Of a stretch of 52,332 nt of DNA, positions 1,360 through 8,247 are shown one piece after another (within the stretch, counting starts at the first letter, position 1; each line of letters opens with the position of its first letter). The stretch lies in NCBI GenBank assembly GCA_002393025.1, contig DGIE01000061.1, forward strand, positions 1 through 52,332. The letters run 5' to 3'. The notes beneath the pieces are model-generated. The model saw only the letters and a list, made by a program, of their open reading frames with translations. It was not told the origin of the DNA and did no database searches. Origin of the DNA: Holosporaceae bacterium UBA3830 (lineage in GTDB: Bacteria; Pseudomonadota; Alphaproteobacteria; UBA3830). Both the position numbers and the translations under genes were made by a program.

Positions 1360-4300
1360 TTGAAGTCTAAGCTTGTAAAAAAATTCTCAATGTTCAGTGT
1401 TCTAAACTGCCTTAAGAGAATATTTTCAGAAAAGTTTATGAAAGCAGTGTCTAATTCACATGGGGTATCTGCGATTTTGGTAATGATATTTGTTCCATTT
1501 ATCATATACGGCATCAGCTATGTAGTTAAGTATACACAAAAGACAGAAGTTGAAACTAATAATTTTGAAATTCCCTATGTAATCGGAAAAAATCTTGCTA
1601 ACTCATTCAATCCAGGTAAGGTATGGAGTGATCAAGAAGACTACTTATATTCTGTAGCAGCGCAGGTTTACAACGATGGCGCCTCCTCCTCGGAAAAGCA
1701 AATGGCTCTGGAGCACGAAAAGACGATTAAAGTCGGAGTAAAATCTGAAACCGAATCCATTTCGAATTTATGTAATTTTTATGCAAACTATAGCACCTAT
1801 GGAAGACAAGATAATATAAAGTTTTCCAGTGATGGGGAAATGCTTATAAATTGCTTGCCATTTTCTGGGTTTGTTTACGATGAGGATCAGCAAAAAATCT
1901 CCTATCTGAGAAGTGATACGGGAATCGCAGATAATGTAGTATACACAGCAAGCAAGTACAAAAAAGATTCAAACAAATTAGAAATTTCTCTCAATAGTGA
2001 CGGAAATATTCTAGTAAAATGTAAAAAAGTAGGAAAAACTGCGGAAGTTACTTTACCTAGAAATGATGTTGATATTGTGATAGCTATTCCGACAAATCGG
2101 GCAAGCAATAGCGTGGATAACAAGGACAGTAATGATTTCGGAGACTATACAGATGTAAGTGTAGCAGATAAGACTCCGATTAAAGAAATAGCCAGAGCGT
2201 GTCAAGCTTTCCTAAAACCTTTCCTTCATACAGCAGGAGTAGCTATCGGGATAATCCCTTATTCAGGAAAAGTTTCACTGTCTCCTTATATGGAGGGTAA
2301 CATAGCGATAGAGACTCCTCTGAATTATAATCCAAGCAATGGATTAAAATATGCTGTACAGGCAATGTTTTATGGGTCCGACGGGCAATTGGGCGGTGAT
2401 GTTGTATTGCTCGACGAGTCAGATGAAACTTTAGCGTATGGAAATTACTCTAATTGGGGATCAGATTCATATGGACGTCCAATTATGGCCCGCAGAGGAC
2501 AGGAAGCATTGTACCGAGGTATGTACCTGAACAGTGGGGCGATTACTGACCTGGTCAAATCTTCGAGTTTGTTACTAGATATGACTACTCCGCCTACGTC
2601 GGGTGATAATTACAAATTTATGCAAATGAATACAAATCCTTGCTATTTAGGATTTTGTAATACGTTGGCAATGACTTGCGAGAAGAAATGTCCGACATAT
2701 CAAGCGAATCCTTATTTTATAACAGAGTTGACTTCTGACATTCAGAGTTTGATGTACGATTTGGAATTATTTGTTCCGTTTAAAGACGAGCATAATAAAT
2801 CAAATTTTCTGTTTTTACCGATTGTTATGGCGGGAAATCTGTTAAGTTGGGGAGAACATCCTTCAGAATTATCATCAACAGGACGAATTCCGGAAAAATC
2901 ACGAAAAAATAAATCTCGTGTAGTTGTTGTGATAGCAAATGCTCCAGATAATTTCGAGCCTATGGAATTGACTTATTTGGGATTCAATAACGATTATTCT
3001 GAGATTCCCATGATTGAGAGTGATATGATTTTGTTTGGTCAAGATCGCGGATATTCTTATGAAGAAAAGAACGGGGAGAAAATATACACTGGAGTAAAAG
3101 GCGCTGTTCGGTTTTCGACATCAGATGGCAAAAAAGATTCGTCAGGATATCTTTTCAAGGCTACATCTTCGGATCAAGAGATGACCGCCAGAATTTCCTT
3201 TCCAAACAAAGGGTTATTGAAAATTGTTGCAGAAAGATATAATCCGGCGACCGTTACGGTTTATAATACTAACGGAGTTGAAGATAACGTCGGAACTTAC
3301 ACGTTTTTGAAAAACAAAACGTTGACTTTTCGCGGACCTCAACAGGTGAAAGACTGGGCAAATTTGGGGACAAGTTTCACATCAGGGTATTACACAACGA
3401 AAGGGCCAAATTTCGGACACAATACTTCAACGAAAAAAGTTAAGATTAAGTTTTCCGGATGTAAGCTAAATAACGCAACGCTGTCGGACCAGATTTTGAG
3501 ATTTTACGGAACATACGAAAAGATAAACAATAAAAACCAAATAGGATCACGAATGGACCCTTGTATAAATTTGGGCTCAAACACTGATACCCCTCAATGG
3601 GTTAATCACTCATCCTACATAGCTGCTTACGGCTTCAATCCTACATGCAAAGGAATTTCCAAATTAAGCAAATTCATTATGGCAGCAAGCTGTCTAGCAG
3701 AGGAAAGAATAACCGATGATAAAGTAAAAATAAATTCAGTTAGCACCGGATCGGGTGTAAAATCATCCGATGCTACTGCAAAATACAGAGTTTACGCGGG
3801 ATCGTCAAAGTCCGGGGACATTACGGTTAATACGGGACAGTTAAAGATTGCAAGTTACTATTATTACGATATATTTGCATCTAAAAAATACCGGGAAAGA
3901 GATGTTACAAAAACAATAACAACATACAGGTATTTTCCGGCGACATCAGCCAACGCAAAAGGAAGCAATAACAGTACATGCTGTTCAACTGTTTGGACAA
4001 AATATACTGTTCCAAACGGCGTAGTAGACACCGATTGCGATTCGGAAAAGGTAAGAATAGAAACAGATAAAGACAGAGGTTCTTATGAGGTGGATAGCTT
4101 ATCCAGTTCGTGCAAAGGGGAGACATATGATGATTGTACTTATACGGAAGTTAAGGCAACGGAGGGAGGTTATGAATACACTAAAAGTATAAGACAAGAC
4201 TGCGAAGACAAACTTACCAGTGCAAAGGTTACTTCATACTCATGTAAAGTTCCCGAAGAATATGATTGTAACTGTCAAAGAAGCCACATCTATGGCACAA

Positions 4301-8247: not shown

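Follow-up and report, generated by a model that had tools for sequence, protein, structure and literature searches.

Among described proteins, the closest counterparts of the gene reported here are the TadG-type subunits of Tad pili. CpaL of Caulobacter crescentus, a TadG orthologue, combines a predicted pilin-like module with a split vWA (von Willebrand factor type A) domain and has been proposed to sit at the Tad pilus tip, its proposed partners there being two small minor pilins, CpaJ and CpaK, for whose genes mutant phenotypes have been reported (PMC11870444). In Myxococcus, TadE, TadF and TadG homologues form interchangeable tip complexes, TadG being described there as a large backbone that carries a modular domain (PMC12075869). 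Genes for type IV or Tad pili are common in Holosporales, where protist-associated members mostly have incomplete type IV pili and tad pili occur in some families (PMC9992710). Here we analysed a 52,332-nucleotide stretch of DNA from Holosporaceae bacterium UBA3830 (assembly GCA_002393025.1, contig DGIE01000061.1, positions 1 to 52,332 of the forward strand; hereafter the window), which carries an unannotated gene for a protein of 2295 residues. We read this protein, with a probability of roughly 0.7, as a very remote relative of the TadG/CpaL kind, that is, a Tad-pilus minor-pilin-like protein whose split vWA domain carries a very large insert and which would bind ligands at a pilus tip or anchored in the membrane. 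The gene and the main parts of its product are as follows.

1360..8247, + strand: gene for the 2295-aa TadG-like protein, an intact open reading frame (ORF) with a TTG start, stop codon included
1349..1353, + strand: Shine-Dalgarno sequence GGAGG, read from the sequence, 6 nt 5' of the TTG start
1417..1701, + strand: N-terminal segment, probably of Tad (TadE/G-like) type, aa 20-114, from the alignment of family N-termini and hhalign
1459..2052, + strand: pilin-like module, aa 34-231, from an AlphaFold2 (AF2) model and a Foldseek match to PilB (7ba2)
2059..2985, + strand: N half of the vWA-like domain, aa 234-542, from AF2, hhalign and landmark alignment
2986..7974, + strand: insert in the beta4-alpha4 loop, aa ~543-2205, ~1660 residues or 72% of the protein, from the junction, the hhalign gap and AF2
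7975..8244, + strand: C half of the vWA-like domain, aa 2206-2295, from AF2 (confidence 94-98) and hhalign

The ORF listing, with its TTG start and GGAGG, bears out an earlier reading of this DNA made from the letters alone (the sequence-only reading), which had proposed an intact 2295-aa frame at 1360..8247. Met27 was rejected as the true start, since GGAGG precedes the TTG at 1360 and none lies upstream of Met27. With a stop frequency of 0.07 per codon from the base composition of the window (one per ~14 codons), ~160 stops would be expected in 2295 codons and ln P for none is about -168, and the other five frames hold 114-213 stops each across the gene; a stop-free frame of 6.9 kb is far more than chance would give. 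All nine landmark strings quoted in that reading lie at the residues claimed, the following seven together with the Cys cluster and the beta4 string that are described below; each was located in the translation and lies on the + strand.

aa 34-51: HGVSAILVMIFVPFIIYG
aa 238-250: DIVIAIPTNRASN
aa 296-305: IGIIPYSGKV
aa 365-380: NWGSDSYGRPIMARRG
aa 2219-2224: ACTRLK
aa 2232-2241: GSPLIFLVKY
aa 2250-2273: EKCADYEYSASNEEDLTEIMKQIA

[quoted passage not shown] A vWA domain split by a beta-rich insert has thus been described before (PMC11870444), at another position and of another size. In CpaL the insert has ~180 residues, consists of two small beta-barrels and comes early in the fold (vWA residues 148-203 and 384-626), whereas here ~1660 residues, ~9 times as many, occupy the beta4-alpha4 loop. 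The metal ion-dependent adhesion site (MIDAS) of CpaL is complete (D160, T162, S164, T470, D515), whereas all five positions are replaced in the window protein; no tad locus lies near the window gene.

With ordinary TadG proteins (Azospirillum WP_035684022.1, Skermanella WP_201083024.1 and Rhizobium WP_086156623.1) the window protein shares a probable Tad segment and the colinear vWA halves, as well as the PYS(G/A)xV strand, the LTxxxxxL helix, beta4, the xxC(x)xLK helix and, at the C-terminus, the motif CA(S)...Y...L..(I/F)..I. Ordinary TadG proteins, expected to be several hundred residues long and found to have 425-648 residues at the twelve loci that we fetched, are encoded in tad operons with CpaF, TadB/C and TadE and carry the DxTGS...GGT...TDG signature, and the window protein differs from them in all these respects; its family's identity to TadG is too low for HMMER, and the relation was detected by profile-profile comparison only. 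PilB of Streptococcus sanguinis (PMC8179133) likewise consists of a small pilin module that bears a bulky vWA module and presents it at the tip of a filament, but PilB, unlike the window protein, is a Gram-positive type IVa pilin with a functional MIDAS and no large insert, and the largest modular pilin in the survey of the same paper has 860 residues, where the window protein has 2295 and the longest of its family 2719. Finally, the tip adhesins of sortase-assembled and type V pili (PitA 7w6b, SpaC 6m48, GBS104 3tvy and Mfa5 6tnj) resemble integrin beta I-like domains and the window protein in having a vWA domain with insertions near the ligand face, but they belong to other assembly systems, their inserts have tens to ~100 residues, and their MIDAS is usually kept. 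The window protein would therefore be of this kind, differing from the known members in the position and size of its insert, in the loss of the MIDAS, in having no tad locus nearby, and in belonging to one uncultured lineage.

Its size is not a peculiarity of this one gene. A search of 5.8 billion proteins returned 38 full-length or near full-length homologues (24-58% identity) from metagenome-assembled genomes (MAGs) labelled Holosporaceae or Alphaproteobacteria, none of them named and none with a Pfam domain on record, and the complete ones have 1433-2719 residues. An exhaustive HMMER search with a profile of the N block against 1.84 billion cluster representatives matched 194 clusters, 178 of them at E ≤ 1e-10; the clusters whose length allows a complete protein have ~1300-2700 residues, the short ones resemble fragments, and no relative of ordinary length is found among the 150 matches listed of the 194. 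The ortholog search that the sequence-only reading had proposed thus returned one giant family, to which all 194 clusters belong, and the length that it had called unusual is so beside ordinary TadG proteins (425-648 aa) but not within the family, where giant size is the rule. Because the 38 homologues share the N, middle and C blocks, the gene itself appears to be under selection. Among species-representative genomes the family occupies 22 loci in ~16 MAGs sampled from rumen, termite guts and further gut sources, with two copies in 5 genomes, and by all matches obtained it appears confined to Holosporaceae-like MAGs. Two tandem genes occur at one locus (L019, CAMNGH010000009.1, positions 1-9268), where the giant genes lie head to tail, one ending at ~4382 and the next starting at ~4490, as after a tandem duplication. 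A limited literature search found no description of the family.

Conservation within the family is tripartite: aa 1 to ~860 (N block) and aa ~1930-2295 (C block) are present in every member, and a third, middle block (aa ~1260-1420) is also common to the family. The most conserved stretch is aa 401-550, with 64-73% column identity, which includes the MIDAS-equivalent loops and the Cys cluster. Both vWA halves and an insert are carried by 66/66 full-length members tested, the insert ranging from 446 to 1941 residues (median 1259).

We next consider the N-terminus, where the sequence-only reading had recognised a TadE/G-like hydrophobic segment. Class III signal peptides consist of a short basic leader ending in Gly or Ala, which is cut off by prepilin peptidase, followed by the hydrophobic helix alpha1N with Glu at position 5; Tad pilins have F, E or Y at +5/+6. 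In the family, a basic leader is followed by a near-invariant Gly35, a hydrophobic helix and Pro46 at +11, with Leu/Ile and Val at +5 and +6 after Gly35, and the leaders range from a few to >100 residues. When the 95 N-terminal residues of the family were compared with the TadG N-terminus in hhalign, the two aligned in register with a score of 40.0 (P 1.6e-5, probability 79%), as compared with 11.3 +/- 2.2 for shuffles and 18.2 for the reversed profile, and this match to the 'Tad' region of TadG is in keeping with the earlier assignment. The AF2 model (m454566000735) places behind the leader a pilin-like module in which a 49-residue N-terminal helix (aa 34-82) is followed by another helix and a beta-sheet (H5-53, H60-80 and strands E90-202 in the numbering of the insert-deleted chimera described below), with a predicted local distance difference test (pLDDT) score mostly of 84-93 beyond the transmembrane part.

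To compare the remainder of the protein with annotated TadG proteins, plasmid and chromid records were retrieved with a TadG-like N-terminal sequence that was used as bait only. A first bait sequence gave no matches, probably owing to low-complexity masking; the search then returned 211 records annotated as 'TadE/TadG family type IV pilus assembly protein' or 'TadG-related', and in the twelve TadG loci fetched most TadG genes adjoin CpaF, TadB/C-type and TadE genes. A family profile of 66 members with the insert deleted was then aligned by hhalign with TadGs of the Azospirillaceae type. The alignment runs across the junction over 308 colinear columns (family columns 74-526, TadG columns 155-475) with a score of 41.3 (P 2e-4, probability 46.5%), while 60 column shuffles gave 15.5 +/- 2.4 (maximum 23.7) and the reversed profile 19.9. 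Each half also matches by itself: the N half aligns with TadG columns 125-377 (score 28.4, above all 60 shuffles) and the C half with columns 349-475 (score 39.8, P 3.9e-5). When the halves were swapped the score was again 41.3, but the C half alone aligned (88 columns). That each half independently finds the right, adjacent part of TadG agrees with the earlier proposal of a TadG-type vWA domain whose remaining elements lie at the C-terminus. The following elements are paired, family first and TadG second.

alpha1: TPIKEIARACQAFL with NRIGKLRDAATSLV
beta2: IGIIPYSGKVSL with ISVVPYSAEVNL
helix: ELTSDIQSLMYDLELFVP with PLTNVKQDLLNKIATLQP
beta4: RVVVVIANAPDN with KAIVLVTDGENS
alpha4: ADACTRLK with ARLCEKLK
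beta5: LIFLVKY with ITIYTIT
Cys motif: EKCA with RNCAS
beta6-alpha6: YEYSASNEEDLTEIMKQIA with YYWDTPSPDQLKSVFQSIG

An initial hhalign run in which two TadG subtypes were mixed had given a weaker signal, although the C-half match was already visible there. With Rhizobium-type TadGs as the only reference the vWA part reaches no significant match (P 0.21), so that the relation between the family and TadG has to be regarded as remote, and HMMER-level searches found no ordinary TadG.

A vWA fold consists of a six-stranded, mostly parallel sheet with helices, in the order beta1-alpha1-beta2-beta3-alpha2/3-beta4-alpha4-beta5-alpha5-beta6-alpha6. The two ends of the window protein were joined into a chimera (aa 30-575 plus 2130-2295) and modelled with AF2, full-length homologues being aligned to this query so that their inserts dropped out as insertions. 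The resulting model has a predicted template modelling score (pTM) of 0.79 and the order of strands and helices expected for vWA, with the last four elements coming from aa 2208-2277. Its N half comprises beta1 (aa 234-244), alpha1 (273-288), beta2 (292-301), further strands and helices, and beta4 (519-526), with extra loops of ~140 aa between beta2 and the following helices; by itself the N piece is an incomplete Rossmann-like fold ending at beta4. The C half supplies alpha4 (aa 2208-2226), beta5 (2235-2241), beta6 (2255-2259), alpha6 (2262-2277) and a final strand, all at pLDDT 94-98. Low confidence was found on both sides of the junction (aa 543-575 and 2130-2179), in the loop aa 321-366 and in the Cys cluster (aa 425-442), regions that probably need the insert for order. 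The cluster is the following feature.

2635..2691, + strand: four-Cys cluster NPCYLGFCNTLAMTCEKKC, aa 426-444, pLDDT <50 in the chimera model

N426, C428, Y429, G431, C433, N434, C440 and E441 are invariant in it, and hhalign aligns it with the GPNLGC region of TadG. When the chimera model was compared with the PDB in Foldseek, the best match was PitA (E 7.6e-3, probability 0.99), followed among the top matches by the Mfa5 vWF domain (probability 0.97, TM score 0.53 on the target), SpaC, GBS104, ITIH1, many integrin beta I-like domains and the LapA vWFA domain, and the modular pilin PilB of S. sanguinis (7ba2/7b7p) was matched over 660-670 columns. More than half of the top 50 matches are vWA domains. 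The model thus supports a vWA-like alpha/beta domain predicted to be built from aa ~234-542 and aa ~2206-2295, as anticipated in the sequence-only reading; that a single sheet would run on across the junction is suggested by the order of secondary structure, the confidence values and the Foldseek matches.

The metal site of this domain is gone. MIDAS motifs are frequent in vWA domains but not obligatory, and in the family every MIDAS position is replaced by residues that are themselves invariant.

2089..2097, + strand: Pro244-Thr245-Asn246 in place of the DxSxS loop after beta1, where TadG has LDVTGSM; invariant columns
2794..2808, + strand: Asn479-Lys-Ser-Asn-Phe483 (NKSNF) at the NRGGT loop of TadG, which holds the MIDAS Thr; invariant columns and hhalign
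2920..2952, + strand: VVVVIANAPDN, beta4 and the following loop, aa 521-531; AF2 strand E490-497 in chimera numbering, hhalign and invariant columns

The DxSxS position reads P244-T-N246-x-A and the TDG position A-N527-A-P529, and no D.S.S motif occurs within aa 200-560. VVVVIANAPDN, the last vWA element before the insert, corresponds to xVLVTDGENS of TadG, with the MIDAS Asp replaced by invariant Asn527 and followed by invariant Pro529; its hhalign pairing with beta4 of TadG supports the view that it takes the place of the usual TDG strand. In ordinary vWA domains the beta4-alpha4 loop lies on the metal-site face, and the former ligand face of the family would now be a permanent interface with the insert.

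In the profile alignment the insert is a gap opposite TadG residues ~381-415 (L031 numbering), a loop of ~35 residues between the TDG strand and alpha4. A large insertion within one vWA fold, put at ~1650 residues in the sequence-only reading, is thereby located and measured at ~1660. The insert was modelled separately as aa 540-1445 joined to 1960-2207, which mimics natural short forms, and this model is almost all beta-strand, as the sequence-only reading had held probable. It is divided as follows.

3004..3936, + strand: block 1, aa 549-859, in every family member; beta-rich, pLDDT 81-97
3946..4683, + strand: variable module 1, aa 863-1108, Cys-rich, with natural indel boundaries; occupancy 0.11-0.6, pLDDT <50
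5104..5616, + strand: block 2, aa 1249-1419, conserved and beta-rich, pLDDT 84-98
5677..7239, + strand: variable module 2, aa ~1440-1960, from a BLAST map and occupancy; missing from the short forms P0013-P0020
7276..7908, + strand: block 3, aa 1973-2183, conserved and beta-rich, pLDDT 65-90, leading back into the vWA domain

Variable module 1 is absent or replaced in many homologues. The stretch aa 874-1239 (3979..5076), most of which lies within that module, holds 30/56 cysteines of the protein, including CGTC and CYKC, and aa 1099-1229 were modelled at moderate confidence. Duplications occur in some homologues, of the block 1 region aa ~600-880 in P0028-P0032 and of the block 2 region aa ~1250-1460 in P0028-P0030. 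BLAST shows no internal repeats in the window protein, which also lacks RGD, LPXTG and Asp-box motifs. Foldseek gave no significant match to the insert model (best E 0.03), in agreement with the view that the insert belongs to no recognised family. Carbohydrate-binding modules, jelly-roll folds and MAM sandwiches were considered for its identity and not accepted, as their Foldseek matches were weak and generic. BNR/Asp-box repeats were seen below threshold in the inserts of two relatives (P0039 aa 660-670, E 3.5e-4; P0043 aa 631-640, E 0.16).

The surroundings of the gene are those of a stand-alone gene, in the window as well as at the flanks of loci L001-L003, L028 and L029, where the giant gene is not beside a tad/cpa locus. 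Besides giant genes, the window contains housekeeping, TamA/TamB, AcrB/HlyD-type efflux, DsbD-like and thioredoxin-like genes, and the following features.

8353..8428, - strand: tRNA-Glu (CTC), directly downstream of the giant gene
35546..35619, - strand: tRNA-Gly (TCC)
49228..49314, - strand: tRNA-Leu (CAA)
447..821: ankyrin-repeat ORF of 124 aa with a TTG start, upstream of the giant gene, with several short overlapping ORFs around it
10581..12203 and 12242..14017: TamB in two ORFs in different frames, with the break at the A10 run 12182-12191
49597..50451, + strand: 284-aa ORF, probably a TadE/TadF-type minor pilin by sub-threshold Pfam matches, directly upstream of the paralogue
50592..52332, + strand: 5' part of a paralogous giant gene of a second subfamily, running off the window; from tblastn of the N block and translations

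The paralogue has an N-terminus close to P0167 and P0170 (2181 and 2041 aa), its Cys cluster NPCLAGYANQLSMKCER has lost the second Cys, and its frame changes near 52185-52200, not at a homopolymer. The sequence-only reading had described the neighbouring genes as decaying. This agrees with the frame change in the paralogue and with the ankyrin ORF of only 124 aa, which may be a remnant of a longer ankyrin gene; it does not carry over to TamB, whose break at the A10 run may stem from a homopolymer error in the assembly, from slippage or from a true frameshift and is not clear evidence of gene decay.

The 284-aa ORF matches the Pfam models TadE (E 8.5e-4) and TadF (E 1.3e-3), both below the cut-off. 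It has at least 178 homologues, of which one carries a recorded PF07811 (TadE) match and one bears the NCBI name 'pilus assembly protein'; they are found less than 10 kb away from giant genes in L001/L002, L017 and L018, not consistently elsewhere, and are scattered among housekeeping, ankyrin and leucine-rich repeat (LRR) genes in L026 and L027. That these TadE/F-like homologues far outnumber the giant genes found with the same search tool suggests several copies per genome or a wider distribution. A conserved operon of the giant gene with the TadE/F-like gene or with TamA/TamB was rejected, neither being conserved across loci. A DsbD-like membrane thiol-disulfide transporter (17928..19445) and a Thioredoxin_4 (DsbA-like) protein (21661..22464) are also encoded in the window, and these genes are compatible with oxidative folding of disulfide-rich periplasmic or extracellular proteins. 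In L001, the gene for the family member P0014 is followed, 1-4 kb downstream (16738-19921), by a gene of VgrG type (Phage_GPD, Phage_base_V, Gp5_trimer_C) and an ORF with DUF4280 (PAAR-like), a pair that fits the reduced type VI secretion system reported for Holosporales.

Given these results, we propose that the N-terminal helix probably inserts the protein in the inner membrane with the remainder in the periplasm, where the Cys-rich module would be oxidised. Rather than binding ligands through a metal, the vWA fold probably acts as a rigid support that holds out the insert, which comprises three modules conserved in the family and two variable cassettes, one of them Cys-rich. The protein could then be carried to the surface at the tip of a Tad/type IV filament together with small TadE/F-like proteins, or remain anchored in the membrane, and would in either position act as a pilus-tip or envelope adhesin. 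In this gut-associated and probably host-dependent bacterium, ligands of the host or other external ones are the probable targets of the protein's variable beta modules.

Several results weigh against this reading. Leu/Ile at +5 after the Gly departs from the Glu/Phe of the CpaA-type cleavage motif, and the leaders are long and variable in the family. No gene for CpaF, TadB/C, a secretin or prepilin peptidase was found in the window (52 kb) or in the sequences flanking six other loci, and passage of a ~250-kDa protein through a secretin would be hard to picture. No known binding module was matched by the insert. The hhalign probability of the vWA part is only 46.5%; Foldseek found nothing in the PDB at E ≤ 1e-3, so that its support is at the level of the fold; and the AF2 model depends on a junction that was made artificially and on an alignment that, with 38 sequences, is shallow. 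Sequence searches of Pfam, NCBIfam and the PDB with the whole window protein gave nothing reaching threshold, and the window protein has no match to PF13400, which is found only below threshold in a few relatives.

The searches with family models deserve a closer look, as the sequence-only reading had named the lack of significant Tad or vWA matches at either end as a result that would count against it, and neither end gave one. Pfam VWA models (PF00092, PF13519 and relatives) matched neither the window protein nor 11 homologues even at E ≤ 1, no Pfam domain exceeded threshold in 11 other family members, and a PDB profile search with a 20-member chimera alignment gave a chance YTH match only (E 1.7). 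The chimera profile recovered from the 5.8 billion proteins five further fragments of the same giant family and nothing else, and a chimera tblastn search of plasmids gave one chance match. PF13400 ('Tad') was found below threshold in 2/5 divergent full-length members (E 0.065 and 0.21), at the correct place and with the full model covered, and in 2/53 N-termini (best E 5.8e-4), along with single sub-threshold TadE and PilX_N matches. Annotated TadG proteins themselves match only PF13400, and VWA models stay below the gathering score in them (E 6e-4 to 2e-3) or do not match. Those of the plasmid and chromid tad loci L030-L040 carry DxTGS...GGT...TDG and yet miss that score. Pfam VWA models under-detect TadG-type vWA domains; because annotated TadGs miss the VWA cut-off too, the absence of such a match says little here, and a missing Tad/vWA HMM match is a poor criterion.

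Among other explanations, the one that survives best keeps the ancestry and the fold and dispenses with the pilus: the protein would be a bitopic inner-membrane protein held by its N-terminal helix, left uncleaved, and its huge periplasmic part would serve a symbiont with a reduced genome as a scaffold of the envelope, a spacer or a periplasmic platform for binding. We consider it unlikely. In its favour, the gene stands alone among housekeeping genes at every locus examined with no tad machinery nearby, the leaders and the residue at +5 (no Glu/Phe) are as described above, the MIDAS ligand site is lost, the size would be awkward for a secretin, and the type IV pili of most protist-associated Holosporales have been reported to be incomplete (PMC9992710). 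What it leaves unaccounted for is that the pilin-like module and the Tad-type N-terminus are kept across ~190 clusters, that TadE/F-like genes persist in the same genomes (178 homologues), and that cassettes of this variable, Cys-rich and duplicated sort are found more typically in proteins exposed at the surface.

A second explanation, which we regard as very improbable, is that the conserved N and C blocks are separate domains and that the apparent single vWA-like fold results from their having been joined for modelling and from profile matches that are weak. The chimera is indeed artificial, its sheet contacts rest on an indirect reading of the model, and the Foldseek, hhalign and Pfam VWA results fall short as given above (no match at E 1e-3, probability 46.5% and no match, respectively). 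However, the halves align independently and in the right order with adjacent, non-overlapping halves of the TadG vWA domain, and the swapped control loses one of them; the N half alone ends at beta4 as an incomplete Rossmann-like fold; pTM is 0.79, with pLDDT 94-98 in the C segment; both blocks are present in 66/66 full-length members tested; and annotated TadGs also miss the Pfam VWA threshold. That the long ORF results from mis-assembly or belongs to a decaying gene without function, as could be supposed for a metagenome-assembled contig in which two other genes have frame breaks, is effectively refuted by 2295 stop-free codons where ~160 stops are expected, by colinear full-length homologues in many independent assemblies and by the strong ribosome-binding site.

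Under the TadG/CpaL-like reading, the window protein is an extreme, unannotated elaboration of the TadG/CpaL design. One could go further and suppose that the vWA domain of TadG has, in this Holosporaceae-like lineage, abandoned the binding of ligands through a metal and been turned into a rigid socket whose former ligand loop bears a long chain of evolvable beta-sandwich and Cys-rich cassettes, so that the family would comprise the largest known pilin-type proteins (≤2719 aa) and an unrecognised class of host-interaction adhesins, displayed at a filament tip or as an envelope-spanning fibre independent of pili; we hold this extension to be doubtful. TadG-type proteins have only lately been recognised as the variable, function-giving tips of Tad pili (CpaL and the Myxococcus Kil tips), and the family shows the reach of this design, with an insertion that is 3 to 4 times as large as the protein receiving it and occupies the ligand-face loop of a vWA domain that has lost its metal site. 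Display on a filament, if it occurs, would raise the question of how the cell assembles and exports a tip subunit of 250 kDa. For uncultured Holosporaceae-like symbionts of the rumen, the termite gut and other gut ecosystems, the family provides a candidate host-interaction protein, and ~190 protein clusters that are without annotation today could be named.

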